Shown here piece by piece: positions 9,628-63,935 of a stretch of DNA of 64,000 nucleotides. Both the position numbers and the translations under genes were made by a program. How positions within the stretch are numbered: position 1 is the stretch's first letter; every line of letters begins with the position of its first letter. The notes under the pieces are model-generated. The model saw only the letters and a list, made by a program, of their open reading frames with translations, was not told where the DNA came from and made no database searches. Origin of the DNA: an uncultured bacterium (lineage in GTDB: Bacteria > Bdellovibrionota > JACOXK01 > 2-02-FULL-40-11); assembly GCA_964392415.1 (NCBI GenBank), contig CAYMPL010000001.1, forward strand, positions 6,200 through 70,199, given 5' to 3'.

Positions 9628-11409
9628 GTGGGGAGAGTCACTCAAATCAAAGCGGCGATTCATTTAGCTATTTTTTCACTTCTGGGGGGATCCTTCGTCG
9701 CTTCGCTCCTCTGGATGACACCCTTGCTCCTCTGGATGACACCATTTGATGCGGCGGCTGACCCAAAATTTCCTTTTTTTCAACAGGCTTCTTTTTCACT
9801 CACCAGAGTCGAGCGGGACAAAACTGAAAACAGACTTTCGCGTATGACGCCTGAAGAAAAAATCGGTCAGCTTCTTATGGTAGGGATCAGAGGGAAGCGA
9901 CTCACCCCTGGAACCGAGCGGCTTATTAAAAAATTAAAACTGGGGGGTGTTATTTTTTACGCTCATAATATTGATGATCCGGTTCAGCTTCGCCAGTTTA
10001 CTTCCGCGATTCAGCATGTGGCATCCTTGGATCACAGGATTCCACTTTTTATATCGGTCGACCAGGAAGGGGGATCGGTTGCGCGGATTCGGAAAGGGGT
10101 TTACTCTTTTCCTCCGCCAATGGCGATTGGAGCCACAGGTTCGCTCCAGCTTTCGTATATGGTCGGCAAAATGATGGCGCTCGACCTCTCTGCGATGGGG
10201 ATTAACATGAATTTGGCCCCTGTTCTCGACGTCAATACGGAACAAGAAAATCAGCTGATCGGAATCCGGTCATTCGGGGGGGATCCTGAACTCGTGGCTC
10301 AAATGGGAATGTGGTACATTGAAGGACTTCAATCGCGGGGAGTTGTTGCAACTGCGAAACACTTTCCGGGGCATGGAAATACCGCGGTCGATTCTCATTA
10401 TGCGATTCCCGCTATTCAGACCGGGCTTTCTGATCTTGAAAAATTTCACCTTCTCCCTTTTAAAAAAGCGATGGAAAATGGTCTCGATGCCCTTATGACA
10501 GCCCATCTTTCGGTGCCAGCGATCGACCCTTCAGGTTTGCCAGCAACATTTTCCTACAATCTTCTGACCGAAGTGGTTCGTAAAAAAATGAACTATCAGG
10601 GGCTCATCGTGACAGATGATCTCGAGATGAAGTCGATTCGTAACAGATATGGAGTGGGGGAAGCGGCGCTCAAAGCCATTTTGGCAGGATCAGATGTCGT
10701 GATGGTTAGTTGGACGGATGAGAAAAAAACAGAGGTTTTTAACGCACTTCTAACTGCCTATCGGGAAGGGAAGCTGACAGAAGAGAGGCTGAACGAATCG
10801 GTTCGACGGATTCTTAAATTGAAATATCAGCGGGGTTTTTTTGATGCTGTTCGGGAGCCTGCATCCCTAAATCCAAAATGGCTGACCCATTCCGCGCACC
10901 AAAAGCTTCTTAGCCAAATTGCTGCGAAGGCGATAACGATGGTTTTCAACAAAGGGGTGCTCCCGTTAAAGGAAGAGGATCCTCGAAAGGTGCTTTTGGC
11001 GACCCCATTCAATCTTTTTTACGAGGAGCTTAAATTTTATCATGAGGATCTGAGTTCTTTAAAAATTCCAAATCGTCCTACCATTTCAGAAATTGAGACA
11101 ATTGTTTCAAACATTACTGAACTGAAAAATGAAATCGATCTGCTCATGATAGGCCTGACACACAGGTCACAACTTCCACTGGTTCAAAGGCTTTCCCAAA
11201 ATATAAAAAAACCGATTGTAGTTATTTCTTTTGAGTCCCCCTACCTCATTCATGAGATAAAGAAAATTTCAGAGATTTCTGCCTTCCTCTGCAGCTATGG
11301 CACCCAGCCGGAGCTTGTCCGCGCAACTGCTGAGTCCCTGGTCGGAATCATTCATCCCACAGGGAAAAGTCCCGTCTTGAGCATGGAAACGGCATCGATT
11401 AACAAATAA
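9628..11409 (+). CDS. nagZ: Beta-N-acetylhexosaminidase, glycoside hydrolase family 3 (NagZ-like) with signal peptide
   Basis: KIGQLLMVGI, ISVDQEGG, KHFPGHG, LIVTDDLEM GH3 motifs. Confidence 0.85.
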   Translation: MGRVTQIKAAIHLAIFSLLGGSFVASLLWMTPLLLWMTPFDAAADPKFPFFQQASFSLTRVERDKTENRLSRMTPEEKIGQLLMVGIRGKRLTPGTERLIKKLKLGGVIFYAHNIDDPVQLRQFTSAIQHVASLDHRIPLFISVDQEGGSVARIRKGVYSFPPPMAIGATGSLQLSYMVGKMMALDLSAMGINMNLAPVLDVNTEQENQLIGIRSFGGDPELVAQMGMWYIEGLQSRGVVATAKHFPGHGNTAVDSHYAIPAIQTGLSDLEKFHLLPFKKAMENGLDALMTAHLSVPAIDPSGLPATFSYNLLTEVVRKKMNYQGLIVTDDLEMKSIRNRYGVGEAALKAILAGSDVVMVSWTDEKKTEVFNALLTAYREGKLTEERLNESVRRILKLKYQRGFFDAVREPASLNPKWLTHSAHQKLLSQIAAKAITMVFNKGVLPLKEEDPRKVLLATPFNLFYEELKFYHEDLSSLKIPNRPTISEIETIVSNITELKNEIDLLMIGLTHRSQLPLVQRLSQNIKKPIVVISFESPYLIHEIKKISEISAFLCSYGTQPELVRATAESLVGIIHPTGKSPVLSMETASINK

Positions 11410-11511
11410 ACAATTTTATCAGGTCAATGTTTAATATAAGTATTTGAAATTACTTATTTTTTATATAAATGCCTGTTGGCAGTTAATTTGCATGGATCTG
11501 CCAAAAGTCTT

Positions 11512-12201
11512 ATGAAAAAAAGGGGCATCATTATAATAGCCATCATTTCTCTGTTCGTTTCTATCTCCAAGGCGGCTCCTCAAGAGACTCAGGAAGAATT
11601 AACACAGGCCCATCTCGGTGAAACCGCCTTTTTACTGCGGAAAAAAGAACTTCTTTTAGGGCTTAGGCAAACAGCGTACGGAATTTTTGACTGGTTTTCA
11701 CTGGAGACGATTCCGCTTTATGATCTATTTGGATCGTGGAATATTTTTGGAAAATTAAAATTAGTTGCGATCGACCCTGTCAGTTTAGCGGCCCGTGCCG
11801 GTATTTTTTATCTGACGCTGGAAGAGCTTCCTGAAGCTCAGCCATCTTCAATGTACCGCGTCTATTTTGGCGGCACTTTATCAGCAAAAGTGGATGATTT
11901 CATCCATTATCATTTGAATATCAATAACACGAGCTTACATGGCAATATCATTTTTGGAAATGACATGATACACATTAAAAAACTTCTTAATATTGAAAAC
12001 GACCTTGAATATAAATTTAATGACCGGCGTTCCGTAGTGGGCGCCGCTGGTTATAATGTTTCAACCAAAAAGGTTTCATTAGGGGGGAGTCATGTGTGGA
12101 GATGGTCAACTTTTCATCTAAAGCTTGGACTCACCTTTAGAACAGGGATTTCCCGGGGGCTTACAATGCTCCCCTTCTTCGATCTTGGTATTCGGTTTTA
12201 A
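11512..12201 (+). CDS. Hypothetical secreted protein (possible outer-membrane beta-barrel)
   Basis: Signal peptide MKKRGIIIIAIISLFVSISKA; start trimmed from 11476 because a sigma-54-like motif occupies 11477-11492. Confidence 0.4.
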   Translation: MKKRGIIIIAIISLFVSISKAAPQETQEELTQAHLGETAFLLRKKELLLGLRQTAYGIFDWFSLETIPLYDLFGSWNIFGKLKLVAIDPVSLAARAGIFYLTLEELPEAQPSSMYRVYFGGTLSAKVDDFIHYHLNINNTSLHGNIIFGNDMIHIKKLLNIENDLEYKFNDRRSVVGAAGYNVSTKKVSLGGSHVWRWSTFHLKLGLTFRTGISRGLTMLPFFDLGIRF

Positions 12202-13131: not shown

Positions 13132-14136
13132 ATGGATGTCGTTATTTCAAATCATAGTCATTATCCGCGAGTTGGGGATCTGAAAGATCAACTCAAATTA
13201 AGGAAGGCATATCATCAATACGATCATAAAAAGATCGATCTCGAAAAATTAAAAAAGGTCGAAGAAGAGACGATTCGGGATATCATTAAAGAGCAGCAAA
13301 CCGCAAAGCTCGATATTGTGACCGATGGTCTTATCAGATGGAATGACCCTGTTTCTTATTTCATGAAGCGCCTTGAGGGGGTTGAAATTGGGGGGCTTCT
13401 CAGATTCTTTGATACCAATTTTTATTTTAGACAGCCGCAAATTATGGGAAAGCTCTCTCTTAAAGAGCCTTGTTTTAAAAAAGATCTTCTCTTTTTGAGA
13501 GCTGGGACAGATGCCGATATAAAGCTTGTGCTGACAGGGCCCTATACGCTGGCGCTCCTCTCAAACATAGCCACGCCGCATTATCAATCGGTTGAGGAAG
13601 TTTCCGAAGCGCTGACAGAGCTGCTCGTCGAAGAGTTCAAATCGATTAAAGAGATGGGGATCCCCTATATTCAAATTGAGGAGCCCGGCTATCTTTTAAC
13701 TCCGCCAGACTGGAAGTGGGCATCCTCGTTGATTAAGAAGTTGGCGGCCCATCAGGGGAATTCAAAGCTGATCCTTGCCACTTATTTTGGTGACGCCGCT
13801 CCTTATTATTCAAAGCTTGAGAATCTTCCCGTCGATATTTTGGGATTCGATACAACCTATTCGCCGGGACTTCTAGAAAGTCTTCGAAAGGAAGGGAGCC
13901 GAAAGGAAATTCAACTTGGGCTTCTGGATGGCCGGAATACGAAACTTGAAAGTCCGGATGAAGTTGTCGGAGTCCTTCATTCTCTTGAAAAAACTTGGAG
14001 GCGGCTGATTCTTACCACCTCTTGCGGGCTTGAGTATCTTTCGAGAGACAGGGCTTTTGACAAGCTCAATCTCTTACAGGAAATTAAATATGCGTACCAG
14101 GGTAAAAACCAAACATCTAAAATCAAAAAGGGATAG
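13132..14136 (+). CDS. Stand-alone homolog of the N-terminal domain of cobalamin-independent methionine synthase MetE
   Basis: Aligns by eye with E. coli MetE residues 1-340: HYPRVG/FPRVG, FDTNFYF/FNTNYHY, LTGPYT/LGPVT, IQIEEP/VQIDEP, LATYFGD/LTTYFEG, TTSCGL/ASSCSL. Confidence 0.75.
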   Translation: MDVVISNHSHYPRVGDLKDQLKLRKAYHQYDHKKIDLEKLKKVEEETIRDIIKEQQTAKLDIVTDGLIRWNDPVSYFMKRLEGVEIGGLLRFFDTNFYFRQPQIMGKLSLKEPCFKKDLLFLRAGTDADIKLVLTGPYTLALLSNIATPHYQSVEEVSEALTELLVEEFKSIKEMGIPYIQIEEPGYLLTPPDWKWASSLIKKLAAHQGNSKLILATYFGDAAPYYSKLENLPVDILGFDTTYSPGLLESLRKEGSRKEIQLGLLDGRNTKLESPDEVVGVLHSLEKTWRRLILTTSCGLEYLSRDRAFDKLNLLQEIKYAYQGKNQTSKIKKG

Positions 14137-14140
14137 AGGT

Positions 14141-15148
14141 ATGAGAACAGAAGAAAACAAATTAAAAAATTTAGGGATTCAATTACCCATTTTTCCATTG
14201 ACTTCGGTCGGGAGTTTCCCAAAATTCGACTATATCAAGAAAGGACGGAGCTGCTTTGAAAAAGGGGAGATTGGCGCAAATGATCTCCTGACTCTTGAAA
14301 AAAAGGCGACAGAGGAGTGGATTCAATTTCAGGAAGAAATTGGAATCGATATTCTGGTCGATGGTGAAATGTATCGGGGGGATATGGTTGCCTATTTTGC
14401 TGAAAAACTCCCAGGCTTTAAAGAAGGGGGTTTTGTTCGATCGTATGGAAATCGATTTTACAAAAAGCCGGTCATTTCAGAGGCTGTCGGATGGGAGAAG
14501 CCGCTCACAGTAGATTGGTGGAAATTTGCGCAATCTTTGACTCGCAAACCGGTAAAGGGGATGCTCACCGGTCCCTATACCATTATGGATTGGTCCTTTA
14601 ATGAACATTATAAGGACCGTGAAGCAGCAGCGCTTGCATTGGCTAAGGTGATCCGAAAGGAAGTGGAGGCATTGATTGATGCCGGGGCAAAGATTATTCA
14701 GGTCGATGAGCCTGCCTGTTCTGTGCGCCCCAAAGAACTTCCGTTGGTCGTGAGGACGATGGATATTGTGACAAGAGATCTCCCGGCCTATTTTGTAACA
14801 CACATCTGTTATGGCGATTTTGAGAAAATATATCCGGAGATGAATGAAATTCCAGTCGACAACTATGATCTTGAAATGTCGAACAGTGAAAACGATCTGC
14901 TTAATTGTTTCAGAAAGGTTCATATGCCAAAGGATCTCTCGGCAGGGATTGTAGATGTTCACACGCATCAAATTGAAGAGCATGCTCTTTTAATGAAGCG
15001 TTTGCGTGATATCTTGGAAGTGGTTTCCCCCTCTCAGCTCTGGGTCGATCCCGATTGTGGGCTTAAGACGCGGACGGTCGACGAGGCGAAAGAGAAATTG
15101 AAAGCAGTGGTAAAAGCAGTGAAGGCGTTGAGGGCCCAGTCATCCTGA
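14141..15148 (+). CDS. metE: Core methionine synthase (MetE C-terminal catalytic domain only, with zinc/homocysteine-binding motifs)
   Basis: VGSFPK, KPVKGMLTGPYTI (identical block to E. coli MetE), IQVDEPA, THICYGDF (His/Cys ligands), VDPDCGLKTR; RBS GAGGT before the ATG at 14141. Confidence 0.85.
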   Translation: MRTEENKLKNLGIQLPIFPLTSVGSFPKFDYIKKGRSCFEKGEIGANDLLTLEKKATEEWIQFQEEIGIDILVDGEMYRGDMVAYFAEKLPGFKEGGFVRSYGNRFYKKPVISEAVGWEKPLTVDWWKFAQSLTRKPVKGMLTGPYTIMDWSFNEHYKDREAAALALAKVIRKEVEALIDAGAKIIQVDEPACSVRPKELPLVVRTMDIVTRDLPAYFVTHICYGDFEKIYPEMNEIPVDNYDLEMSNSENDLLNCFRKVHMPKDLSAGIVDVHTHQIEEHALLMKRLRDILEVVSPSQLWVDPDCGLKTRTVDEAKEKLKAVVKAVKALRAQSS

Positions 15149-16693: not shown

Positions 16694-17434
16694 TCATTCT
16701 TTTTTCAGGAAATGTTGATAGTACAGCAACGATGCCCCGACGACACCGCCGGGCAAAACAGAGAGATTGAGAATCGGTATTGCGAGCATGAGAGAGATCC
16801 CTGCTCCAAATCCCAGGCACGCGAATGGATGAGAGAGCATCACCTTCTTGAGTTCTTCAAAGCGGAGGTGTTCGACACCAAACGGGAAGTCTAGAAACTG
16901 GAATGAGAGTAAAAAAAGTGTGAGACATCCGCTAATAACAACTCCAATGACTGGAATAAGAAGAAAGAGAAGCGCAATCGCTTCAAGAAAAAGGATCAAG
17001 GCTATTTTTTTGAGCTGTGTTGAAAGAATTCTTTTGGCTTCGGAAACAACCTGACTGAATGAAAAGGGTTCTCTTTCAGACGCTCCGTAAAGGAGCTTTT
17101 TTGTTTTTTCTGCCATCCATTCATGAAAGGGGGCGGCAAGGAGGTTTCCCACGAGACAGACAAAAAAGGTGGTAAGAATGAGCATAACAATCAGGAACAA
17201 AGTTGCAAAAAGATAGTAGGGGATCAGCCAATACCAGGCATCCGGTTTAATAATCATAAGCGCCAAAAGATCATCAAAAGTGTAATAGAGCGTTGTCAGC
17301 GCTGAGATGAAAAGAACGATATTGATCATCCAGGGGACCAAAGCGAGGCGAAGAAGAGAGGCATGCATAAAAAGAAAGCGCAGACCGTAAAAGGGATACG
17401 AAAAGCCGGCTTGGAAATCACGAATCATTTTCAC
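16694..17434 (-). CDS. Polytopic membrane protein, EI24/CysZ-like (DUF540-like)
   Basis: Four to six predicted TM helices; loose resemblance to CysZ/EI24 only. Confidence 0.35.
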   Translation of the reverse strand: MKMIRDFQAGFSYPFYGLRFLFMHASLLRLALVPWMINIVLFISALTTLYYTFDDLLALMIIKPDAWYWLIPYYLFATLFLIVMLILTTFFVCLVGNLLAAPFHEWMAEKTKKLLYGASEREPFSFSQVVSEAKRILSTQLKKIALILFLEAIALLFLLIPVIGVVISGCLTLFLLSFQFLDFPFGVEHLRFEELKKVMLSHPFACLGFGAGISLMLAIPILNLSVLPGGVVGASLLYYQHFLKKE

Positions 17435-17462: not shown

Positions 17463-18581
17463 TCATTGAAAAAGGTGTTGGTTAATAGTATCTAGCCCCT
17501 TTATATCGTAGATGTCTTGGGCAAAAAAAGGGATTTCGTAAACTGGTACACCTGCGGTGGGCGCTGCTGTGGAGAGAGATTTTTTAAATTGTTCTGTTTC
17601 CATTCTTTCTCTTTTGGCAAGCTCTTCCCACTGCTCGAAGATTTCAAGTTTCACCCGCTCGTTCTTTGACATTTTTGGTTTCATGTTTTCCAGCGTTTTT
17701 CTTTGGGACGAATAGGCATCCGCTGTCAAGGGAATGTCAGCTAAAATCCGGTTGATGATGATCCCTCCAAACGGAAGTTTCATTCCAGTAAGCCTTTCAT
17801 AAAAACGAAAGGCTTCTTCAAGCATTCTCCTTTCAGGGACAGTTGCAAGTAAAAAAGCGGTTTCATGACTCCCCAAAATTTCTCTGGCTTTTAGTGTTCG
17901 TTCCCGAAAACCGGTATAGAGCGTTTGTAAATTGATAAAAAATTCTGACAATTCATAAAAGAGCTGAAGGCCTGTGAATCGCTCGATGATTTTAAAAACA
18001 AAATAAGAGCCTGCCGACAAAAACTGAATGCTCAATTTTCCTGCTAGAAAATAGGGTTTGAGAAACCATTTTAGAATATTTTCATCGAGAAAATTGGAAA
18101 GTCTTTCCGGGGCTTCCAGAAAATTGAGCGCGTGTTTTGCTGGAGGGGTGTCGATGACGATGAAGTCATAATGGTTTTCCTTCCAAAGCTCGTAGAGTTT
18201 TTCAAGGGCCATATAGTCCCGTGTTCCCGCAAGCATCGTTGAGAGATACTGATAGATCCGGTTTCCCAGAATTTTATCAATAATTTCCTGGGACGGCGCG
18301 TACTGGCGTATCAGTTGATCCAGTGTCTCTTTGGTATCGAGCATCATCGCCCAAAGTTTCACATCCTTACTGAGAGGAATTGCCTTTGGGCGATGGTCGA
18401 ACTGATCAAACCCGAGGGTTTGCGCGAGCCTTTTTGCTGGATCGATCGTCAAGACGAGTGTTTTTTTCCCGGACTTTGCCGCATGTACGGCAATAGCGGC
18501 GGAAAGGGTCGTTTTTCCCACCCCTCCGCTCCCCGAAACGATAACCACTTTTTTGGTTTTTAGAATATCAGCTAAGCCCAT
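17463..18581 (-). CDS. ArsA/GET3-family P-loop ATPase (second of a tandem pair)
   Basis: SGSGGVGKTT deviant Walker A, DTPP switch region. Confidence 0.8.
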   Translation of the reverse strand: MGLADILKTKKVVIVSGSGGVGKTTLSAAIAVHAAKSGKKTLVLTIDPAKRLAQTLGFDQFDHRPKAIPLSKDVKLWAMMLDTKETLDQLIRQYAPSQEIIDKILGNRIYQYLSTMLAGTRDYMALEKLYELWKENHYDFIVIDTPPAKHALNFLEAPERLSNFLDENILKWFLKPYFLAGKLSIQFLSAGSYFVFKIIERFTGLQLFYELSEFFINLQTLYTGFRERTLKAREILGSHETAFLLATVPERRMLEEAFRFYERLTGMKLPFGGIIINRILADIPLTADAYSSQRKTLENMKPKMSKNERVKLEIFEQWEELAKRERMETEQFKKSLSTAAPTAGVPVYEIPFFAQDIYDIKGLDTINQHLFQ

Positions 18582-19501
18582 TGTTTTTCGATTTCCTTGC
18601 CGAGTTTTTTAAGAGCGGAGAGATCAGGCGCTTCCTTTAAAATCCAGGGGATCTTAAAGCTTTTTTTTGACAACTCTTTCTCAAGGCGGTCTTCATACGA
18701 TTGCTGGATCTTTTGTCTTGTTTGATAATGAAGGAGGGTCTGTTCTATCTTTTTAAGGAGTGAGCCCATGTCATTCTGAGAGCCCCAAAGTCCAATAGTT
18801 CGAAGAATCCCATTATTTTCAAAAGCCTCCAGTTTTTTATTTAAAAACAGTTCTCCCATCGGAAGTCTTAGTTTTTTGATTTCATTAAAAAGCTCGAGGG
18901 TTTCCTGAACAGGGAGTTCTTCAGGAATAGTAACCAGATGAATCGCTGTCTCTTTTTTTTCGGTGAGCATCGAATAGATTTTTTGGGATTGCTCCGCCAG
19001 GGGGCCTTTTTGAGTCAAATCGATAAAGACCTTTGGAATTTTAAAAAGATAAAGAGCGTGGCCTGTTGCGGGGGCGTCAACAATCAAAATATCCCAGCGG
19101 GGTTTCTTTCCGGAACGCTCATCGCTCAGGTAATACATTTTTCCGATCAACGCCATTTCTTCCACCCCTGGGGCCGCTTTCACAAAAAAATGGAAAATCT
19201 TATTTTCAAAGATGAGATCATATATTTTTTCGATCTTTATCTGACGGATAATAAATTCTCTAAGAGAGGACAAAGGATCGATCAAAACCCCATCAATGTT
19301 TGGGGCAAGCGGTTTGGGGGTCATCGTCCCTTTTTCAGTGTTAAAAAGGCACGATACTGGGCTTTCAGGATCGAGATCGATCAGAAGTACTTTTTTCCCC
19401 CGGCTTGCTGCGATGAGAGCGAAAAGAGACGCAATCGTGGTTTTCCCGACCCCCCCCTTTCCGGTGAAAAAATGAAGTCTCTGCTGAAATAGCGATGTCA
19501 T
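18572..19501 (-). CDS. ArsA/GET3-family P-loop ATPase (first of a tandem pair)
   Basis: TGKGGVGKTT, DAPATGHAL; 10-nt overlap with the downstream paralog. Confidence 0.8.
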   Translation of the reverse strand: MTSLFQQRLHFFTGKGGVGKTTIASLFALIAASRGKKVLLIDLDPESPVSCLFNTEKGTMTPKPLAPNIDGVLIDPLSSLREFIIRQIKIEKIYDLIFENKIFHFFVKAAPGVEEMALIGKMYYLSDERSGKKPRWDILIVDAPATGHALYLFKIPKVFIDLTQKGPLAEQSQKIYSMLTEKKETAIHLVTIPEELPVQETLELFNEIKKLRLPMGELFLNKKLEAFENNGILRTIGLWGSQNDMGSLLKKIEQTLLHYQTRQKIQQSYEDRLEKELSKKSFKIPWILKEAPDLSALKKLGKEIEKQWA

Positions 19502-21485: not shown

Positions 21486-22823
21486 ATGATGAAACGGTAC
21501 GTTTGCGGACTCTTCATCCCTTTATTTTTTTGTTCCCCTCCACTCTTTTCTCAGATGGTTGAGGGTACCGATGTTTCAATTTCTGAGATGCTTTCGGCTC
21601 CCTATGTGGAGGGTGAGCTTCTCATTCGATATCTGAGTGATTTTAAAGCAGACGATCGTGAGATGGTTCACTCCATGACGGGGGTGATGACTCTGGAGAC
21701 CGATTTTATAGTCCCCAATTTGGAATTGATACGCTTGCCTTATGGCGCTCAAATGGCGCAGGCGATCGATTATTTTCAAAAATTGCCGGGGGTTCTTTAC
21801 GTGACGCCCAATTATATTGTTGAAATACAGGCAGGGATTTTTTGGAAACGCCCCCCTTCGCCGAAGCCCGACCCCCAGTTTGGCGCTCCTTATTTTTATC
21901 TCAGCTATGGGGTGGATAAAGTTCAGGCGCCGAAAGTTTGGGAAAAATTTACGGTCGGAAGTTTAGATGTTGTTGTGGGTGTTATTGATACCGGGATAGA
22001 TTACAGACACGAAGATTTGGCTGGGAATGTGTGGAAAAATCCAAAGGAAATTCCAAACAATGGATTGGATGATGATCAGAATGGCTATATTGATGATATC
22101 CATGGGTGGAATTTTTATAACAATACGAATGATCCCTTTGATGATAATCAGCATGGGACGCATATTTCAGGCATCATTGGCGCTATGGCGGGAAACCGCA
22201 TTGGAACGATCGGCATGAGTCCCAAAGTATCTTTGATGGCCTGCAAATTTTTGGGGAGTGATGGCCGCGGCACAACCTCCACTGCTATTCGTGCGATCGA
22301 ATATGCGCTCAAGAACGGAGCAAAAATCTTAAATAATAGCTGGGGGGGACCCAGATTTTCTCAGCCGCTTCTCGATACGATCAAATCGGCTGAACGAATG
22401 GGGGTTCTTTTTGTCGCAGCTGCCGGCAATTACGATCGGGATAGTGATGAAGAGCCCCTTTATCCTGCAAGCTATGATGCCGGAAATATTATTTCTGTCG
22501 CCTCGTCAGATTCGAGAGACCACAAGTCAGAGTTTTCAAACTACGGAAGAATATCGGTAGATCTTGCCGCCCCGGGATCCGCAATTTACAGCACGCTGCC
22601 AAACGGCAGTTATGGGAATCTCGATGGAACATCCATGGCGACTCCCCATGTATCGGGCGCTGCCGCCCTTATCTGGGCATACCGTCAGGATTTAAGTCTT
22701 TATGATTTGAAAGATCTGATTTTAAAGAGTGTCGATCCGATCGATTCGATGAAAGAGTTTACCGTTACGGGTGGACGGCTCAATGTGTATAATGCGCTGG
22801 CGCTTGCATTATTAATGTTCTGA
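21486..22823 (+). CDS. Secreted subtilisin-like serine peptidase (S8 family)
   Basis: Catalytic triad blocks VIDTGID, HGTHISGIIGA and GTSMATPHVSGAAAL. Confidence 0.9.
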   Translation: MMKRYVCGLFIPLFFCSPPLFSQMVEGTDVSISEMLSAPYVEGELLIRYLSDFKADDREMVHSMTGVMTLETDFIVPNLELIRLPYGAQMAQAIDYFQKLPGVLYVTPNYIVEIQAGIFWKRPPSPKPDPQFGAPYFYLSYGVDKVQAPKVWEKFTVGSLDVVVGVIDTGIDYRHEDLAGNVWKNPKEIPNNGLDDDQNGYIDDIHGWNFYNNTNDPFDDNQHGTHISGIIGAMAGNRIGTIGMSPKVSLMACKFLGSDGRGTTSTAIRAIEYALKNGAKILNNSWGGPRFSQPLLDTIKSAERMGVLFVAAAGNYDRDSDEEPLYPASYDAGNIISVASSDSRDHKSEFSNYGRISVDLAAPGSAIYSTLPNGSYGNLDGTSMATPHVSGAAALIWAYRQDLSLYDLKDLILKSVDPIDSMKEFTVTGGRLNVYNALALALLMF

Positions 22824-22899
22824 TTTTCCGATGACACTTTCAAATCGCTTCTGTTCAAGCAATCTGGAAAACCTGCCGATACAGAATTGAAGAAAGAAA

Positions 22900-22999
22900 T
22901 GGCGGAAGTGTATGGGAATCGAACCCACCACAGACATAGAGACTATGTCTGTCACTGGATTTGAAGTCCAGGAAGTACACCAGAAACTTAAACACTTCC
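22900..22999 (-). tRNA. selC: tRNA-Sec (selenocysteine tRNA, anticodon UCA), 100 nt including encoded CCA
   Basis: Reverse complement reads GGAAGTGT (8-bp acceptor stem pairing with ACACTTCC), anticodon stem-loop CTGGA-CTTCAAA-TCCAG (UCA), long variable arm TGACAGACATAGTCTCTATGTCTG, T arm GGGTTCGATTCCC, discriminator G, CCA. Confidence 0.85.
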
Positions 23000-23025
23000 A
23001 CCGCACTCTTTAAGGGATCTCAAAA

Positions 23026-24882
23026 TTGTTGTCAAATCGATGCATACAATTCATTCGGAGACATAAGGCCAAATTCGGGTTTCTTCTCACCCTGTTTTTT
23101 GTCTACGGCGCGCTCGTCCATTACGAACTGGTTTTGAAAATAGGACCTCCTTCGTTTGCCACCCAAAAACCGTTGCCTGCCCTGAATGACGAGGGGACTT
23201 TGATTGTGAAGCCCCGCGCGAAATTCGGTCCGCCAAAAGAAGATGTCAATGATGCGAAGGCGCTCTATCATTTCTCTCTGGGAACGATTGCAAGTTATGA
23301 AAATCAGTATCATGAAGCTATTTCACAGTTTAAAAAGGCGCTCGAGTATGATCCCAAATCCGCCTATATTCATCTGCGCGTCGCCGAGGAATATTTAAAG
23401 CTTTCTGAATTTGAATCGGCAAAATCTCATGTGAATACCGCGCTCAAGCTCGACCCTAAATTTGCGGATGCGCATCTCCTGAAGGGGGGATTGGATGCCG
23501 CTGAAAAAAAATATGAAGAAGCAGCCGCCCATTATCAGAAAGTTATTGAGCTCGACCCATCGCGGGAACAGGCTTATATCTTTCTTGCTACCATTTATGC
23601 CGAACAGGGGAAATACATGGAAGGGATTAAACTTCTCAATAAACTTCTCCATATTGAACCTCAGTCTTATTGGGCTTATTACTATTTGGGACGAATTTAT
23701 ATTGAGCAGGGGAAACCGAATGAAGCCGTTCGCGCTTACAAACAATCGCTCAAAATAAATCCTTCCTTTCATCTGGCGGCCCTTGCCCTGGGCATTCATT
23801 ATGAACTGAGGGATCAGGTGGAGAGGGCCATCCATGTCTATTTGGAGGCGATTGACCGCGGCGATACGAGCCCAAGGCTGCTTAAGCGGACCGTCCAGCT
23901 CCTATTGGCAAAACAGGATTATGTGCGGGTTCTCAAGCTTCTCGAAGAACTTAAATCCCAGGATCCGGGGGATTTAAACAATCGTGTCCGGATCGGCCTT
24001 ATTTATTATGAAATGAAAGATTATGAGCGGGCGCAGCATGAATTTAAAGATCTCATTAAAGAGTATCCGGAATCAGACAGGCTTCAATATTATCTTTCGT
24101 CTGTATACGAAAAATTGGGCAAATATGACGAAGCTATTCAGATTTTTGGAAAAATAAAATATGGGTCCGAATTTTATATTGATGCGCTCAATCGACATGC
24201 GTTTCTTCTCGTCGAAAGAAATCAGTTCGAAAAAGCAATTTCTCTTGTTGAAAAAGCGATTGAACAAAAACCGGGGAGCGGCCAGCTTTATGAAGTGCTC
24301 GCCTCCATTTATGAAAAGAAAGAAAAATTTGATGAAGCTCTTAACGTTTTGAATAAAGCAAAAGAAAAATTTCCCCCGCTGAAAAAAGATGAACGCCTCA
24401 TCTACTATACAGGGACGATTTACGACAAGATGGGCAATTTCGAAAAATCGATTGCAGTGATGCAGGAGATTTTAAAGCTCAACCCAAACCATGCGGATGC
24501 CTTGAATTTTGTCGGCTACAGCTATTCGATTAAAGGGATACGTCTCGATGAGGCGGAGGCGATGATTAAGAAAGCGCTCTCTTTAAAACCAGGCGAAGGG
24601 TATATCGAAGATAGTCTGGGGTGGATCTATTTCATCAAAGGGGATTATAAACGGGCAAAAAAATATCTTGAAAAAGCAGTTATTCTAAAAGCGGATGAGC
24701 CTGTCATTTTGGACCATCTTGCCGACCTTTATATAAAATTGGATGATATTAAAAAAGCGCAAAGCCTCTACCAAAAAGCTTTGGAACTCAAACCTGACAA
24801 AAAAACAACCGAGCAGATCCAAAGAAAACTGAACGTCATCAACGAAAAAGAAAAAAGCAAACGCCTTCCTGCCGCCCATTAA
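23026..24882 (+). CDS. Tetratricopeptide-repeat protein
   Basis: More than 12 TPR units (AxxYxxxGxxY...A pattern) along the whole protein. Confidence 0.8.
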   Translation: MLSNRCIQFIRRHKAKFGFLLTLFFVYGALVHYELVLKIGPPSFATQKPLPALNDEGTLIVKPRAKFGPPKEDVNDAKALYHFSLGTIASYENQYHEAISQFKKALEYDPKSAYIHLRVAEEYLKLSEFESAKSHVNTALKLDPKFADAHLLKGGLDAAEKKYEEAAAHYQKVIELDPSREQAYIFLATIYAEQGKYMEGIKLLNKLLHIEPQSYWAYYYLGRIYIEQGKPNEAVRAYKQSLKINPSFHLAALALGIHYELRDQVERAIHVYLEAIDRGDTSPRLLKRTVQLLLAKQDYVRVLKLLEELKSQDPGDLNNRVRIGLIYYEMKDYERAQHEFKDLIKEYPESDRLQYYLSSVYEKLGKYDEAIQIFGKIKYGSEFYIDALNRHAFLLVERNQFEKAISLVEKAIEQKPGSGQLYEVLASIYEKKEKFDEALNVLNKAKEKFPPLKKDERLIYYTGTIYDKMGNFEKSIAVMQEILKLNPNHADALNFVGYSYSIKGIRLDEAEAMIKKALSLKPGEGYIEDSLGWIYFIKGDYKRAKKYLEKAVILKADEPVILDHLADLYIKLDDIKKAQSLYQKALELKPDKKTTEQIQRKLNVINEKEKSKRLPAAH

Positions 24883-24885
24883 TGA

Positions 24886-26067
24886 TCATTTCTTCTTCAA
24901 AAAGGCTTCAATATTTTCTTGGGTGACGATCACAGGTGGAAGCGCCTTGGGAAAGACTTCTTTAAATTCTTCATATGCCTGAAAATGCCTTTGTTGTGGA
25001 GCATTCCAGCTTACTTGATAAGGGACAATCTGGTTATCTTTTAAGACAATGAAATCGATTTCTCCTTTTCCGCGCCAGTAATAAACGTGTCGATATTCTT
25101 TTCTGAGATGATGAAAAACGACTGTCTCCAATTCTTTTCCTTTGTCTTTCCCCGTTTTGGTGATAATCGCCTTTCTCAATCCCAAATCGATGGGGTAATA
25201 TTTTTTATTTCTAGCAGCGCTTTGCTTTTCAGAAAATGTAAAATAGGGACATGGCAGGAGAAGATAAGCGGCAATCGCAGCATCGAGATATGATTTCACC
25301 GTATCAGGTGTAACATCGATAATTTTAGCTAAACTTCTTTGGCTGACCTCCGACCCTGTTGCCTCAAAAACAGCTTTGATAAGCTGAGTGAGCGTCAAAG
25401 TTGATCTGACCGATATGTGCCGTCTGACATCTTTTTCAATAATATCGGTAAAATATTCCCTCAATAGTTCTTGCGGTTTTTCAAACACTAAGGGCCTGGG
25501 AAAACCGCCTTCATCGAGATAAGATTCAAAAGAAGTTTCTCCTTTAAGCGACTTAAATTCGTGATAGTCAAATGGGAACAATTCAAGCGTGATATGGCGC
25601 CCTGTGAGCGCTGTTGATAATTCACCCGAAAGAAGCGAAGCGTTAGAGCCAGTGATCACATAGATTTCATTGGATGGGCGTTCCACCTTTCTGTGAAGCC
25701 ATTTTTCCCACCCTTTCACATTTTGAATTTCGTCCAGAAAAAAATAATAGACATCATGTTCTGATATTTTTTTGGATAGAGAAACGATTTGATCGACCAG
25801 GTCGGGATTGAGATCCGCACTCAGTCTCGGATCTTCAAAATTTACAAAGGTACAGGAAGGCCGGGGAAGTTTTTTGTGGGCCATGATTTGAGCCAAAAGA
25901 GTCGACTTTCCGCATCTTCGAACCCCTTGAATAACGAGGACAATGTCGGGATTGAGCGGAATGTCGCCTGACAAAATTTTACGTGGAATGGATGGAGGTG
26001 GCTCTTTGTCCCAATAACTCCACTCTCTAATGATCTGTTTGAGTTTAGAATTATCAAGCATAATCAA
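24886..26067 (-). CDS. AAA+ ATPase of the AAA_14/DUF4143 family
   Basis: VIQGVRRCGKSTLL Walker A, DEIQ Walker B, C-terminal DUF4143-like region. Confidence 0.8.
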   Translation of the reverse strand: MIMLDNSKLKQIIREWSYWDKEPPPSIPRKILSGDIPLNPDIVLVIQGVRRCGKSTLLAQIMAHKKLPRPSCTFVNFEDPRLSADLNPDLVDQIVSLSKKISEHDVYYFFLDEIQNVKGWEKWLHRKVERPSNEIYVITGSNASLLSGELSTALTGRHITLELFPFDYHEFKSLKGETSFESYLDEGGFPRPLVFEKPQELLREYFTDIIEKDVRRHISVRSTLTLTQLIKAVFEATGSEVSQRSLAKIIDVTPDTVKSYLDAAIAAYLLLPCPYFTFSEKQSAARNKKYYPIDLGLRKAIITKTGKDKGKELETVVFHHLRKEYRHVYYWRGKGEIDFIVLKDNQIVPYQVSWNAPQQRHFQAYEEFKEVFPKALPPVIVTQENIEAFLKKK

Positions 26068-26197
26068 GATGTTACCAGATTACATATAAAGTGTCGAGTT
26101 TTATCGACACTTTTAAAGCCCTGCACAGAGGGGGTACCCTTGACAATTTTCGTCATTTCAAAGTAAAGAACCAAAGCAATTAACATGGACAGAAGGA

Positions 26198-27253
26198 ATG
26201 TTAAGCAATATGAAATATAAACCTTTGATTTTTTTGACACTATTTTTATCTCTGAGCATGAATGAGACTTGGGCGGATGACCGCTATTTGAGTCCAGACA
26301 AGAAGATGGAGCTGATTCATGGGGGGATAGTTTATCTCGCAAAAAACCAAAAAATGGATGGAAGGTGGGAGCATCCGCAATATCCTACGGCTGTGACAGC
26401 ACTCTCTGCACTATCGATTTTGGGGATGGGGCACACACCGCACCGCGGGCCTTATCAAGAGACACTGACAAAGGCCGTAGATCTTTTACTTTCCGCTCAA
26501 AGAGAAAAGGATGGTTTGATTGCGATTCCGGGAGAGCAACGGTCGATGTATGGACATGGGTTTTCAACCCTCTTTTTAAGCCAGGTCTTTGGAATGAGTG
26601 GGGGGATGACGCCAAATTCTCGAATTAAAAATGCGCTCCAAAATGCTGTCGATCTTATTGTAAAGAGTCAGAATGATAAAGGGGGCTGGTATTACGAGCC
26701 CTTTTCATTCGACGATGAAGGGACGATCACGATTGTTCAAATTCAGGCGCTTCGGGGGTGCAGAGATGTGGGCATAGTTGTTCCCAAAGAGACGATTGAA
26801 AAGGCTTTGGATTATGTCAAAAAATCTCAATATGAGAACGGCGGAATCGCTTATGGCGTGGGACCGTCAGGAAATGCTACGCCGGCGTTGACCTCAGCAG
26901 GGATGGCGGTTTTATTTAATGCGGGGGAATATGATGTTACGGAGGTTCATGCCAAAGGTTTCCGGTATTTAGATGAGCAATTTAAAGAATTCTTAACAGG
27001 GTCAGAAAAAAAAGAGGTGGGAGGTGGTCACTTTCTTTACACTCATTTTTACGCGTCACAAGTTTATAAATTGCGCGGGGGATTTTATAGGGAAGATTAT
27101 TTTCGGGTTATTGAGAAGGTCTTAGAAGAACAAATGAAAGGCACAGGTGGAGAGAGATTTTGGGATATTGAAGAAGGCCCCTTTTATTCAACCGCAATGG
27201 CGCTTTTAATTTTGGAGATGGAACTTGAATACCTTCCGATATTTACGGATTAA
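26198..27253 (+). CDS. Secreted prenyltransferase/squalene-oxidase-repeat (PFTB, terpenoid-cyclase fold) protein
   Basis: Signal peptide; four QxxxGGW-type repeats (QKMDGRWEH, QREKDGL, QNDKGGWYY, QYENGGIAY). Confidence 0.7.
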   Translation: MLSNMKYKPLIFLTLFLSLSMNETWADDRYLSPDKKMELIHGGIVYLAKNQKMDGRWEHPQYPTAVTALSALSILGMGHTPHRGPYQETLTKAVDLLLSAQREKDGLIAIPGEQRSMYGHGFSTLFLSQVFGMSGGMTPNSRIKNALQNAVDLIVKSQNDKGGWYYEPFSFDDEGTITIVQIQALRGCRDVGIVVPKETIEKALDYVKKSQYENGGIAYGVGPSGNATPALTSAGMAVLFNAGEYDVTEVHAKGFRYLDEQFKEFLTGSEKKEVGGGHFLYTHFYASQVYKLRGGFYREDYFRVIEKVLEEQMKGTGGERFWDIEEGPFYSTAMALLILEMELEYLPIFTD

Positions 27254-27255
27254 CC

Positions 27256-27342
27256 GTCATTCCGAGGGACAAAGTCCCGAGGAATCTCTGTCATTGCGAG
27301 CGGGGCGTGTGTCATTCCGAGCACGGAGTGCGAGGAATCTCA
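27256..27342. repeat. Three tandem repeat-family units between the PFTB protein gene and the FGE-domain gene
   Basis: GTCATTCCGAGGGACAAAGTCCCGAGGAATCTC / TGTCATTGCGAGCGGGGCGTGT / GTCATTCCGAGCACGGAGTGCGAGGAATCTCA. Confidence 0.85.
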
Positions 27343-29102
27343 TTTCCCTGATCTCAATTTTTCTTTTTTCATCTTCTGTAGTGTCACACGCAGAAGATAA
27401 AGTGATTTACCAAAATGATCACCGTGCTGTAAGAAAAGCGAAGGGAAAAGATATTTCCATTTACGTCGATGCGCAGTTTAAGAGGGCGAGAGAAGCAAAG
27501 ACATATAATGAGGCGTGGGATACGTATGTTGTCATTCAAAAAGAGATCCCGGAAGAACTCATTTTAATAGAGGGGACAGATGTCATTCCGAGCGCGAAGC
27601 ACGAGGAATCTGCTCGCCTGATGTCATGGAAAGAGATGAGAGCGCTCTTACTCGAAGCAAAGCAAAATGAAAGCTCGAAAGCAGCGTCTCAATTTTTAGA
27701 CTCTCCATTAGGAGCGGAACCTTCTGAAGAGCCGTTTCAAAAAGCTTGGAATGAGGCCACAGAAGATCTTGATTTTAGCCCCCACGATGGATTTCAATTC
27801 GCATGGCTTTTAGCGCCTTATCTTCCCACACAAACAGGAGGTCTCTGGGCTGAAAAGATGGGAGATGCGTATGTTGAAGAGGGGAATTACCTTCGGGCGT
27901 ATGCTCAATATAAGGCAATTAAAGATCATTCAATCGCTCATAATGAACGAATCGAGAAAAAATTAAATTACGTTATAAATGGTTTGGGAAAACGCCTCCA
28001 TAGAATTAAAAAAGCAAGCGCACTTAAGGGATTAAAGCTCAGCGATGGGACGGTCTATCGGCTGGTGGTAGAAGAATTGGGGATGCACAAGGAAAAGACC
28101 CTCTTTTTGGAGATTGCGTATCAAAAAGGAAAAGTCATTCAAAAGAGAATAGATGATGCTGAGTTGACACATCTCAATTCAAAAAAATATGGTCATTTTC
28201 TTATAAGGGATGGGGACAAGATTTTGCTCATGCCACCGCCCTGGAACAGATATCTCATATTTGACTTAAATGGGATGCTTTTAGAAAAAGTTTTCACCAA
28301 AGAAGAGATAGCTTCCCGATACGGAATTAAAAACATAAATGAACTTTTGTTTTCAAGGCATGGTTTTAGACTTATTTCCAGAGGAATCTTTAACATGGGG
28401 AGCCCACCTGATGAAGAGGGAAGAGGTGGTGATGAAACCTTACATTCTGTTACAATTACGAAAGATTTTTATCTGCAAAAGACGGAAGTGACCCAGCTTC
28501 AGTGGTATCTTGTTATGGGTGAAACGCCTTCGTGTTTTCGAGGAGAATGGTATTGCAAAGAAGAGTGGGATGAAGAGTTAAAGATTTGTCCAAATCATCC
28601 TGTGGAGCAAGTATCGTGGGATAATATTCAGATCTTTATTCAAAAGCTAAACGAGATGCAGAGTAAATATGTTTATAGACTTCCGACAGAAGCGGAGTGG
28701 GAGTATGCGGCACGCGGGGGGACGACAACACCATTTTATTTTGGAGAGACGATATTTTCTGACCAAGCCAATTACAATGGAGATGGCACTTATAAAGACG
28801 GTCATAAAGGAATTTATAGAGTGAAAACGATTCCGGTTTGCAGTCTAGGTCAGCCGAACGCATGGGGCTTATTTGATATGCATGGAAATGTGTGGGAGTG
28901 GGTTTCTGATTGGTATGGAGGATATCCCGCTGGAAGCGTGGTTGATCCGGAGGGGCCTCCCTCAGGCTCGCTCCGCGTTTTCCGCGGGGGCAGTTGGCGC
29001 AACTACCCGCATTATTACTTGCGGTCCGCGAGTCGTTACTCCAATTCGCCGGACTACAGCTACGATGGCGTCGGTTTCCGACTCGCGAGGACAAAGAAGT
29101 AA
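27309..29102 (+). CDS. Secreted protein with C-terminal formylglycine-generating-enzyme (FGE-sulfatase/SUMF1) domain; GTG start inside a repeat element proposed
   Basis: C-terminus has EQVSWDNIQ, RLPTEAEWEYAARGG, HGNVWEWVSDWY, RGGSW, GFRLAR FGE-sulfatase motifs; the signal peptide RARSARNLISLISIFLFSSSVVSHA begins within repeat copy 27311-27342. Confidence 0.75.
   Translation: MSFRARSARNLISLISIFLFSSSVVSHAEDKVIYQNDHRAVRKAKGKDISIYVDAQFKRAREAKTYNEAWDTYVVIQKEIPEELILIEGTDVIPSAKHEESARLMSWKEMRALLLEAKQNESSKAASQFLDSPLGAEPSEEPFQKAWNEATEDLDFSPHDGFQFAWLLAPYLPTQTGGLWAEKMGDAYVEEGNYLRAYAQYKAIKDHSIAHNERIEKKLNYVINGLGKRLHRIKKASALKGLKLSDGTVYRLVVEELGMHKEKTLFLEIAYQKGKVIQKRIDDAELTHLNSKKYGHFLIRDGDKILLMPPPWNRYLIFDLNGMLLEKVFTKEEIASRYGIKNINELLFSRHGFRLISRGIFNMGSPPDEEGRGGDETLHSVTITKDFYLQKTEVTQLQWYLVMGETPSCFRGEWYCKEEWDEELKICPNHPVEQVSWDNIQIFIQKLNEMQSKYVYRLPTEAEWEYAARGGTTTPFYFGETIFSDQANYNGDGTYKDGHKGIYRVKTIPVCSLGQPNAWGLFDMHGNVWEWVSDWYGGYPAGSVVDPEGPPSGSLRVFRGGSWRNYPHYYLRSASRYSNSPDYSYDGVGFRLARTKK
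27582..27612. repeat. Repeat-family unit in frame inside the FGE-domain protein gene
   Basis: GTCATTCCGAGCGCGAAGCACGAGGAATCTG, encoding VIPSAKHEES. Confidence 0.75.
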
Positions 29103-29203
29103 TTCTCGGCACTTTTACGATTTTATACTTGGTGCGCCTTAGCAGATAGCGCCAATAAACCATCCTTGTTTTATCGATTTGGGATGCGTTATAGTGAAGC
29201 ATT

Positions 29204-36191: not shown

Positions 36192-36318
36192 AGATTCACC
36201 ATAGCGCCTCAAACCGTACCACAGGCCGATGTCAAATTTCAACATATTCTGGCTCATATTATTCTGGCTAAACAATATATTTGCTAAAATCGCCGTCTGA
36301 TATAAATTGGGAAATTCG

Positions 36319-37224
36319 ATGGAAAACTACAGGATTCCATATCTCAGGGAGCTCGAGTCCGAGAGTATTTATATTATTCGCGAGGCTCAAGCTGAATTTA
36401 AGAATCCGGTCATGCTCTATTCGATCGGCAAAGATTCGTCTGTGATGCTTCATCTGGCAAGAAAGGCCTTTGCGCCTGGCAAGATTCCTTTTCCTCTCCT
36501 GCATATCGATACGGGTTACAAATTCAGAGAGATGATTGAGTTTCGGGATTATTATACGAAAAAAATAGGGATTCGGCTGCTCGTTGAACGAAATGAAGAA
36601 ATGATCGCCAAGGGGATGCACCCTTCTCTCTATGGAACCGATCGATGCTGTGGTTTTTTAAAAACAAAGGCGCTGCTTTCCGCCCTTTCAAAACACAGAT
36701 TTGATGCAGCCTTTGGGGGGGCCAGGCGTGAAGAAGAAAAATCGAGGGCGAAAGAGAGAATATTTTCCGTTCGAAATGAATTTGGCGTCTGGGATCCCAA
36801 AAATCAGAGGCCGGAGCTTTGGCATCTCTACAACTGCAAGTTAAGGGGGGAAGAGACGATGCGTGTTTTCCCCCTCTCAAACTGGACGGAGGGGGATGTC
36901 TGGGACTACATCAAATTGGAAAATATCGAAGTGGTCCCTTTGTATTTCGCCAAAGAGCGTCCAATCGTCAGGCGAAGGGGGATGGTTATTCCGGTAGATG
37001 AGTCAACGCATTTAAAAACAGATGAAAAAATAGAGAAAAAAATGATTCGTTTCCGGTCGCTTGGCTGTTCCCCCTGCACAGGGGCGATCGAATCAAAAGC
37101 GGCAACGATTGATGAGATTTTGATGGAAGTGCTGGAAACGAAAAAATCGGAGAGAGAAAATCGGGTGATCGATTTTGGATCTGATAGTTCAATGGAAGAG
37201 AAAAAGAGAGAGGGATATTTTTAA
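36319..37224 (+). CDS. cysD: Sulfate adenylyltransferase subunit 2
   Basis: [28 protein letters not shown]-reductase-fold motifs; the alternative upstream ATG at 36307 is possible. Confidence 0.85.
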
Positions 37225-37226
37225 GG

Positions 37227-38518
37227 ATGGGATTTCCAATATCGGATCGGGAATTATTAAGGCTTACCACCGCGGGGAGCGTCGATGATGGAAAATCGAC
37301 CCTGATGGGGCGGCTCCTTCATGACTGCAGCAAAGTTTATGAAGATCAGCTGGAGGCGGCCCGTCAGACAAGCCTGCGAAAAGGGAATTCGGAGGTCGAT
37401 CTTTCGCTTCTGATGGATGGGCTCTCTTCCGAGCGTGAGCAGGGGATTACCATAGATGTTGCCTATCGTTATTTTACGACGCCGAAACGGAGATTCATTA
37501 TTGCCGATGTCCCTGGACACGAACAATATACAAGGAATATGGTGACCGGCGCTTCGAACGCCCATCTTGCGGTCATTCTTATCGATATAACGAAAGGGTT
37601 TCTCTTTCAGGCCAAACGGCATCTGGTCATTGCAACGCTTCTTCAGACGCCGCATCTTCTGATTGCGATGAATAAAATGGATCTCATCGGCTATGACGAA
37701 GGTGTTTATGAAAAAATAAAAGGCGAGATTTCGCAGTTTGTTTCGAAATTGGGCGTGAGGGATCTTCAGTTTATTCCCATGTCTTCTCTTAAGGGGGACA
37801 TGGTTGTGAAACGGCACGATCAGATGGATTGGTATGGGGGGTATACGCTGCTTCATTATTTGGAGAACCTTCACATATCGAGTGACCGGAATCTCATCGA
37901 TTTCAGATTTCCTGTTCAGCTTGTCATCCGCCCGGATGCTTCTTTTAGAGGTTATGCGGGGAGAATCGAAGGGGGGGTGATTCATCTGGGGGATGACATT
38001 GTCTCTCTCCCTTCCGGGAAAAAATCGAAAATCAGATCTATTTTAACCCCTGAAGGGGAAAAAACATACGCTTTTACCCCCCAGTCTGTGACACTTGTGT
38101 TGGAAGATGAAATTGATGCGAGTCGCGGGGATATGTTTGTGAGGCCAGAGAATATTCCGGATATTTCTCATGAATTTCAGGCGGCTGTTTTTTGGATGTC
38201 TGAGAGTCCTTTTGTCGAAAAAAAGAGCTATCTCATCAAACAGGGGACAAAAATAACCCGCGGTTATGCCAGTGAGCTGAGGTACCGGATTGACATCGGC
38301 GATCTCCATCGAAAAGAAGCAAAAGAACTGGCCTGTAACGAGGTGGGAAGGACGTTTATAAAAACCCATGAGCCGCTGATGTTTGATCCCTATGCGAAAA
38401 ACAGAAACACGGGCTGCTTTATTTTTATCGATGAACTGACTTATGAGACCGCAGGCGTCGGCATCATCTGGCACCGCTTTGCAAAATCGGATCACCTACA
38501 GTATCAGGAATTTAAGTC

Positions 38519-38522
<4 letters not shown>
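37227..38522 (+). CDS. cysN: Sulfate adenylyltransferase subunit 1 (GTPase)
   Basis: GSVDDGKST G1 motif, DVPGHEQY, NKMD. Confidence 0.85.
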
Positions 38523-40528
<2,006 letters not shown>

Positions 40529-62723: not shown

Positions 62724-62903
62724 ATGATTAAACAGGATGCCCGGCTTGTGGATAAACGGGTTATCAAAAGACATATCGCACATAATCTTCTTACAGAGAA
62801 GGAATTCAAGTCTTATCTTGCTTCGCTGAAGGATTCTTCTTCCTCAGCCGAAGAGATTGATATTAACGAAGATGATGCACGTAAGATTTTAGATAAATCT
62901 TAG
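62724..62903 (+). CDS. Small hypothetical protein (59 aa), not in the ORF track because it is under 60 aa
   Basis: RBS GGGGG 7 nt before the ATG; MIKQDARLVDKRVIKRH...; overlaps the selD 3' end by 15 nt. Confidence 0.25.
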   Translation: MIKQDARLVDKRVIKRHIAHNLLTEKEFKSYLASLKDSSSSAEEIDINEDDARKILDKS

Positions 62904-63935
62904 AATAGCCCGATCACTTCTAAAGACCGAACCAATCCGTCGGGATTCCTTTAAACCGGCCGCGTGAAATTTTTTAAGGATCGGGAGGGCTTCCTCCTCC
63001 GGCAAGCTGATGAAAAGCCCCCCTGATGTCTGGGGATCAAAGAAGAGCGTCTCCCATTCTTTTGAAAACGTTCTTTCAAACCAGATGGCATCCTTCACAT
63101 AGAGTCTATTCGTCCGGTCCGCGCGTGTAAGCACCCCTTTTTTTGCAAAATAGAGCGCTTCTTCATAGTACGGCAGGCAATCACTTTCGATCAAGAGCCC
63201 TTTGCTGCTTGCCTGAGCCAACTGAAAGGCATGTCCTGTCAGACCAAAACCGGTGATGTCGGTACAGGCATGGATGGTAAATCCCGCCATGATTTCGGCT
63301 GCTATTTTATTCAATTGGGTCATCCAATGGCAGACATATTCGATCGATTCTTTTGACGCCTTTTTCTTTTTGATCGCTGTGGTAAGAATTCCTGTTCCGA
63401 GCGGTTTTGTGAGAATCAGCGCGTCTCCCTCCTGGGCTCCTTTATTCGTATAAATTTTTTTTGGATGAATCAGCCCTGTCACAGCCATCCCATATTTGAG
63501 CTCAGGATCGGAAACGGTGTGTCCCCCCAGTACCACGACGCCTGCTTCCCAGGCTTTATCCTGCCCCCCAGAGAGAATTTTCTGAAATACTTCGATGGGG
63601 AGGCTGGAAGGAAAGGCGGCAACATTGAGCGCGGTTAAAGGATGTCCCCCCATCGCGTAGACATCGCTCAGCGCATTTGCCGCGGCAATTTGTCCATAAA
63701 TGTAGGGATCATCCACAATGGGCGTAAAAAAATCGACCGTCTGCACGAGGGCTATTTCATCCGAAATTTTATAAACGCCGGCATCGTCGGCCGTCTCCGC
63801 CCCAACCAGAAGGTTTGGATCCGAAGGTGTTTTTAGATGAGCAATAATCTGCCGCAACTCCGTTGGGCTGAATTTAGAGGCTCAACCGGCGCATTTCACT
63901 TTTTCAGTGAGGCGCCAAATATCTTCTTTCGTCAT
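62889..63935 (-). CDS. selD: Selenide, water dikinase (selenophosphate synthetase) with an in-frame UGA selenocysteine codon at complement(63882..63884); N-terminus extended relative to the ORF track
   Basis: Reverse translation MTKEDIWRLTEKVKCAG-[TGA]-ASKFSPTELRQIIAHL...DPNLLVG aligns with E. coli SelD SIRLTQYSHGAGC(17)GCKISPKVLETIL...DPNLLVG, placing TGA at the catalytic Cys17 position. Confidence 0.85.

Follow-up and report, generated by a model that had tools for sequence, protein, structure and literature searches.

Two questions are raised by a short stretch of the minus strand that is covered by an open reading frame (ORF) of 64 codons: does it contain the gene of a selenocysteine tRNA (selC, tRNA-Sec), and does the organism use that tRNA? 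The window, by which we mean the whole 64-kb stretch of DNA that was analysed, derives from sample ERZ1292639, groundwater from Hainich well H51. We consider it very probable that positions 22900-22999 (-) are the organism's functional selC gene, and the evidence comes from the fold of the tRNA itself, from its conservation in related groundwater bacteria and from a second gene of the same window, selD, which carries an in-frame UGA. The two overlapping features are as follows.

22900..22999, minus strand: selC, tRNA-Sec(UCA), 100 nt including the encoded CCA (from ARAGORN, Rfam RF01852, free-energy fold and structural comparison)
22812..23006, minus strand: 64-aa ORF overlying the tRNA, GTG start; in our judgement not a gene (from the ORF list and comparison with relatives)

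Detection and fold of the tRNA

ARAGORN in its normal mode called a tRNA-SeC at 22900-22999 (-), with the anticodon tca at position 36, as one of the two tRNAs that it found across the 64-kb window. The Rfam tRNA-Sec model (RF01852, gathering score 47) matched 22904-22999 (-) over its full length, model positions 1-91, with 71.5 bits and an E-value of 1.2e-12. Because these two independent detectors agree, the identity and the coordinates of the gene are confirmed. The first-pass annotation had proposed a 100-nt minus-strand tRNA-Sec and had named both kinds of search as ways of checking it; ARAGORN reproduces its ends and its identity exactly, and the covariance model, with a score well over its threshold, concurs.

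Folded without constraints, the 100 nt form a cloverleaf of the 8/5 type, which is the Sec form that had been anticipated for them. The fold energy is -36.0 kcal/mol, compared with -23.2 +/- 3.5 kcal/mol for dinucleotide shuffles (z = -3.6), and only 1 of 200 shuffles folded as well. The acceptor stem has 8 bp, all of them Watson-Crick (GGAAGUGU/ACACUUCC), and is followed by the linker UU; together with a T stem of 5 bp (GUGGG/CCCAU, G.U first) it makes up an acceptor/T branch of 13 bp (8+5). The anticodon UCA lies in the 7-nt loop CUUCAAA on a 5-bp stem, and a C26:G44 pair is preceded by a bulged U. The extra-arm stem has 10 bp and a 3-nt loop, UCU, after which comes the linker G48, and the 3' end reads ...ACACUUCC-G-CCA, that is, G73 and an encoded CCA. 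The structural details that had been read from the letters alone therefore all hold: the 8-bp acceptor stem is present in the unconstrained fold, the loop CUUCAAA and its anticodon are matched by ARAGORN and the fold alike, the variable arm counts as 24 nt (10+3+10 plus the linker G), and both the discriminator G and the CCA are found at the 3' end of the gene.

Conservation of the locus in groundwater relatives

The tRNA gene stands between an S8 subtilase (21486-22823, +) and a TPR protein (23026-24882, +), with only 76 nt from the stop codon of the protease to the 3' end of the tRNA. These flanking genes agree with the first-pass description of a selC that sits alone and not beside selA or selB, and Pfam scans found no selA or selB domain among the ~59 ORFs of the 64-kb window. 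A stand-alone selC is normal, and that of E. coli is not adjacent to selAB either.

A scan with the neighbouring PRPP synthetase, one genome per species, yielded a close relative, L002 (CAYJMQ010000027.1), whose PRPP synthetase is 96% identical to that of the window and whose DNA is ~90% identical and collinear with it. It has a tRNA-Sec at the equivalent position with two base differences, and through one of these an A-U pair of the extra arm becomes G.U. A protein search further revealed a clade of groundwater contigs with PRPP synthetases of 67-78% identity; where they are named, NCBI labels them 'Deltaproteobacteria bacterium', GWA2_38_16 being among them, and the MAGs of these relatives may belong to the GTDB phylum UBA10199. 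The clade has a conserved gene order of two ArsA-like ATPases, a hydrolase, the PRPP synthetase, the S8 protease, the TPR protein and ABC transporter genes, from which the hydrolase is missing in L018 and L019. In L002, L018, L020 and L021/L022, whose PRPP synthetases range from 96% down to 70% identity with that of the window, the interval between the S8 protease and the TPR protein contains a tRNA-Sec gene, immediately upstream of the TPR gene. The Rfam scores of the more distant ones are 76.5 bits (L018), 70.1 bits (L020) and 62.7 bits (L021/L022), and their tRNAs are 89-90% identical to that of the window, or up to 98% when L002 is included. In L018, the one distant relative whose flanking DNA was aligned, that DNA gave no alignment to the flanks of the window.

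Neither ARAGORN nor Rfam found a tRNA-Sec at the syntenic site of L019 (GCA_016198185.1, JACQJD010000093.1). Since this relative is without it at the same site, not every member of the group has the trait, and the use of selenocysteine may be patchy within the lineage. The gene order of L019 is kept at 10388-12027, with a 290-aa ORF in the place of the tRNA-Sec. The interval also varies in a PHB_acc_N (PhaR-like) gene, which lies between the tRNA-Sec site and the protease in L018 (5595-6044), L019 (10388-10855), L020 (2750-3190) and L021 (8379-8822) and is missing in the window and in L002.

With respect to expression, a consensus scan for promoter and terminator elements at selC gave no usable element, with no clear -10 and no clear terminator. 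Reading by eye suggests one weak candidate.

23007..23035, minus strand: possible sigma-70-type promoter, weak and inferred (read by eye)

Its -35, TTGACA (23030-23035), is perfect and its -10, TAAAGA (23007-23012), is poor; a spacer of 17 nt separates the two, and the -10 ends 7 nt ahead of the 5' end of the mature tRNA. The candidate is identical in L002 and not alignable in L018.

A 4.3-kb segment of the window (24874-29158) is missing in the ~90% identical relative L002, in which its flanks are contiguous. It encodes an AAA_14/DUF4143 ATPase, a prenyltransferase/squalene-cyclase-like protein and a 625-aa protein with an FGE-sulfatase domain. We considered the tRNA as its integration site and rejected this, as the segment lies beyond the TPR gene on the 5' side of the tRNA. 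Because it is not adjacent to the 3' end of the tRNA, it is probably not a tRNA-targeted island.

Structural conservation and the irregular D-arm

We built a structural alignment by hand from the selC of the window, five other tRNA-Sec genes and E. coli selC. The outgroups were E. coli and L009, the sole locus obtained in a metagenome scan for the motif running from the D-loop to the anticodon arm; its context is unrelated, and it was used as an outgroup only. Acceptor, anticodon and T pairs are standard in every aligned tRNA-Sec. In the extra arm, pairs 1 and 3 change from A-U to G-C among the relatives, and pair 5 occurs as A-U, G.U and G-C, so that these three pairs show compensatory or wobble changes in L018, L021 and L002. 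The alignment contains a single pairing break, a G.G in L018. Compared with the outgroups, compensatory changes are also seen at acceptor pairs 6-8, in the D-stem and at T pairs 2-3. Judged from the aligned sequences, this substitution pattern is the signature of an RNA under selection for its structure.

The D-arm is the one irregular part. Its 17 nt comprise three base pairs at the foot, two inner layers in which there is a single standard pair besides a U.U mismatch and a bulged U, and a UGGU tetraloop that a C-G pair closes; the stem as a whole thus has five standard pairs, the U.U mismatch and the bulged U, as against six clean pairs. A 6-bp D-stem with a 4-nt D-loop is a determinant for SelA in bacterial tRNA-Sec, and the tRNA-Sec of Aquifex aeolicus likewise has a bulge in its D-stem (PMC3711452). 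A model of the Sec type, which includes the C26:G44 pair and closes the UGGU loop by C-G, lies only 0.2 kcal/mol above the minimum-energy fold. In the hand-made alignment, the whole lineage shares a D-stem with a pyrimidine-U mismatch and one bulged base, without covariation. We also tried a D-stem model with U14 bulged, under which a change from U-A to C-G between the window and L018 seemed compensatory, but it was contradicted by L020 and L021.

These features raise the idea that the groundwater lineage has a tRNA-Sec subtype of its own, with an extra arm of 10 bp or longer and a conserved mismatch-plus-bulge D-arm, in which the trait was possibly gained or lost between close relatives. We hold this to be rather unlikely. 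If true, it would imply a co-adapted SelA that recognises the non-canonical D-arm.

The tRNA-Sec of L020 (GCA_023248265.1; 3283-3385, -) has 103 nt and a variable arm of 27 nt. It was missed by ARAGORN and found by Rfam with its 70.1 bits, a case which shows that a single detector may overlook tRNA-Sec genes with long arms.

A selenoprotein gene in the same window

Whether the tRNA is used can be approached through selD, at the far end of the window, a gene that the first-pass annotation leaves unmentioned.

62889..63935, minus strand: selD (selenide, water dikinase), 348 codons, in-frame UGA at 63882-63884 (from TIGR00476, translation and alignment)
63851..63868, minus strand: candidate SECIS hairpin, GCCCAACGGAGUUGCGGC (from folding)

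The ORF at 62889-63857 (-) has AIR-synthase-type domains in a Pfam scan. Read further upstream in frame it continues as MTKEDIWRLTEKVKCAG-TGA-ASKFSPTEL..., with an ATG at 63935, which places the UGA at residue 18 in the motif KVKCAG-U-ASK. The gene scores 356 bits against the NCBIfam equivalog TIGR00476 (cut-off 125), and the protein, with Cys put at the UGA, matches the SelD chain 2yye of A. aeolicus with an E-value of 2e-66. This alignment places the UGA opposite the Cys of SSGCAAK, a motif of that chain, and the conserved Lys follows. In the native enzyme of A. aeolicus we take this residue to be Sec.

An independent assembly, a contig from Hainich groundwater, has the same TGA, and orthologues with 97, 80 and 66% identity keep the UGA, the coding sequence being conserved on both sides; the 66% orthologue is that of 'Deltaproteobacteria bacterium GWA2_38_16' (GCA_001798085.1). 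The public selD call starts at TTG 63857, 27 codons late, and yields a protein of 322 aa that is without its active-site N-terminus. Most of the closest SelD homologues in the database have 322-327 aa and cover ~92% of the query, with calls that likewise begin directly behind the UGA. The selD region breaks off shortly upstream of the called start in both assemblies, at ~65 and 124 nt.

The candidate SECIS begins 13 nt past the UGA and has 18 nt, with 7 bp, one bulged C and a GGA loop. Its pairs are invariant in four orthologues in which neighbouring codons vary, without covariation, and an Rfam search in E-value mode around the UGA matched no SECIS family. It is plausible from its position and fold that this hairpin is the SECIS. 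Two scans of the window for further genes with an in-frame UGA gave nothing convincing besides selD.

Selenocysteine use

That SelD keeps a UGA at its catalytic residue makes sense only if this codon is read as selenocysteine, which in turn requires a tRNA-Sec. It is on account of this conserved in-frame UGA at the catalytic position of selD that we consider the organism to use selenocysteine, and, on the sequence evidence, UGA is decoded with this very tRNA. In the established bacterial system, the transcript would be processed to the 100-nt tRNA-Sec, which seryl-tRNA synthetase would charge with serine by way of the long extra arm and G73; SelA would then turn the serine into selenocysteine, using selenophosphate from SelD, and SelB would bring the tRNA to those in-frame UGA codons that have a SECIS hairpin downstream of them. 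The sequence determinants seen here for handling by SerRS, SelA and SelB are the extra arm, G73, the 13-bp branch and the G.U at 49:65. The UGA of selD would be one target codon, such that the system would support its own selenium donor enzyme.

Recognition of selC removes a spurious ORF from the annotation and flags the genome as one that uses selenocysteine. Genes that appear truncated or split at UGA in such a genome therefore need to be read again, and selD is an example of this, a selenoprotein gene that has been shortened in public gene calls.

Alternative explanations

The gene could be a relic, left in a genome without selA and selB in which the insertion of selenocysteine has been lost. 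Neither selA nor selB was seen in the window, and none was seen beside selD in the relatives, where no sel gene occurs within 10 kb and nadA lies upstream of selD; moreover, the syntenic L019 without the tRNA shows that the trait can be lost in the group. A decaying gene would, however, be hard to reconcile with stems that are all intact and with a tRNA conserved at 89-90%, compensatory changes included, where the PRPP synthetase has fallen to ~70%. The catalytic UGA of selD, which is kept in four orthologues with conserved coding on both sides, also counts against a relic, because it would be lethal to the enzyme without the insertion of selenocysteine. We thus regard a relic as very improbable and a functional selC as the better reading. 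We see as little chance that the functional tRNA is a look-alike, an allo-tRNA or a SelC* tRNA-Cys by which UGA would be read, via EF-Tu, as serine or cysteine. Such tRNAs have a long variable arm, a long D-stem with a tetraloop and sometimes the anticodon UCA, and they are known from uncultured soil and sediment bacteria (PMC5389517). They are defined, however, by a 12-bp branch (8/4 or 9/3) in allo-tRNAs and by U73 in SelC* tRNA-Cys (PMC5389517), and since the tRNA of the window has 13 bp (8/5) and G73 it belongs to neither. Its T stem, furthermore, opens with G.U as does that of E. coli selC, and its score is well above the threshold of the tRNA-Sec model.

Finally, the 64-aa protein might be real and the tRNA-like fold a coincidence. 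A 64-codon ORF that begins with GTG does span the stretch, but an Rfam E-value of 1.2e-12 for tRNA-Sec speaks against chance. Equivalent ORFs have 56 aa in L002 and 57 aa in L018, both of their ends differ from those of the window, and they resemble the 64-aa ORF only over the residues encoded by the tRNA. Four frames are open over the same bases, and the gene calls of public contigs at this site are other short ORFs on the opposite strand. Because the similarity is limited to the tRNA part, the ends vary and other frames are open, the ORF is best read as spurious, as the first-pass annotation had it, and we attach next to no credence to the protein. The gene at this site is, in our reading, selC.

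Other genes in the window

Sulfate activation genes lie in a row at 36307-39109 (cysD, cysN, cysC), and a cysZ-type sulfate transporter is encoded at 16694-17434. The sulfate activation pathway is also able to handle selenate. Queuosine genes are present at 39102-40220 and 45341-47685, namely tgt and, after yajC-secDF-recJ, queD (PTPS), a folE2-type GTP cyclohydrolase, queC and a gene for a DUF366 protein. The two adjacent ArsA/Get3-like ATPases (17463-19501, -), whose best NCBIfam matches, mycobacterial BagB/BagA, are well below the cut-offs, lie beside the PRPP synthetase in all relatives examined. Two consecutive MetE-like ORFs with cobalamin-independent methionine synthase domains (13132-15148, +) overlap by ~100 nt in different frames; in relatives the pair consists of two separate genes of ~330 aa each.

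Comparison with known systems

Neither a stand-alone selC nor a Sec-containing SelD is new biology, both being well known. Bacterial tRNA-Sec is characterised by a UGGU D-loop, a two-base linker after the acceptor stem and a linker G48 after the extra arm (PMC3711452; PMC5330540). That of A. aeolicus has, in addition, a bulged U ahead of its C26:G44 pair (PMC3711452), and it shares with the selC of the window the 8+5 branch, this pair with its bulged U, G48 and the UGGU D-loop. The length of bacterial tRNA-Sec is given as 90-101 nt, with G73 and an encoded CCA as the rule (PMC5330540), and the 100 nt found here are within that range, whereas the extra-arm stem of 10 bp is one above the 6-9 bp that were quoted for tRNA-Sec in 2013 (PMC3711452).

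E. coli selC has an anticodon stem-loop identical to that of the window and, as noted above, the same G.U at the opening of the T stem; its sequence was confirmed through an exact search in a set of 5,426 E. coli genomes, in which it carries the annotation tRNA-Sec. Overall identity between the two genes is 64%, and blastn of the window tRNA against the E. coli genomes gave no match. Both the variable arm and the acceptor stem are long in the selC of the window, as they are in the allo-tRNAs and SelC*, and in all of them the D-arm has a tetraloop and resembles that of tRNA-Sec.

For SelD, the comparison is with the Sec-containing enzyme of A. aeolicus (PDB 2yye/2zod), in which the equivalent catalytic position corresponds to the UGA of the window gene; the latter has a candidate SECIS only, without covariation and without an Rfam family. 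Taken with these known systems, the selC described here is a canonical bacterial tRNA-Sec gene and a member of a thoroughly known family.
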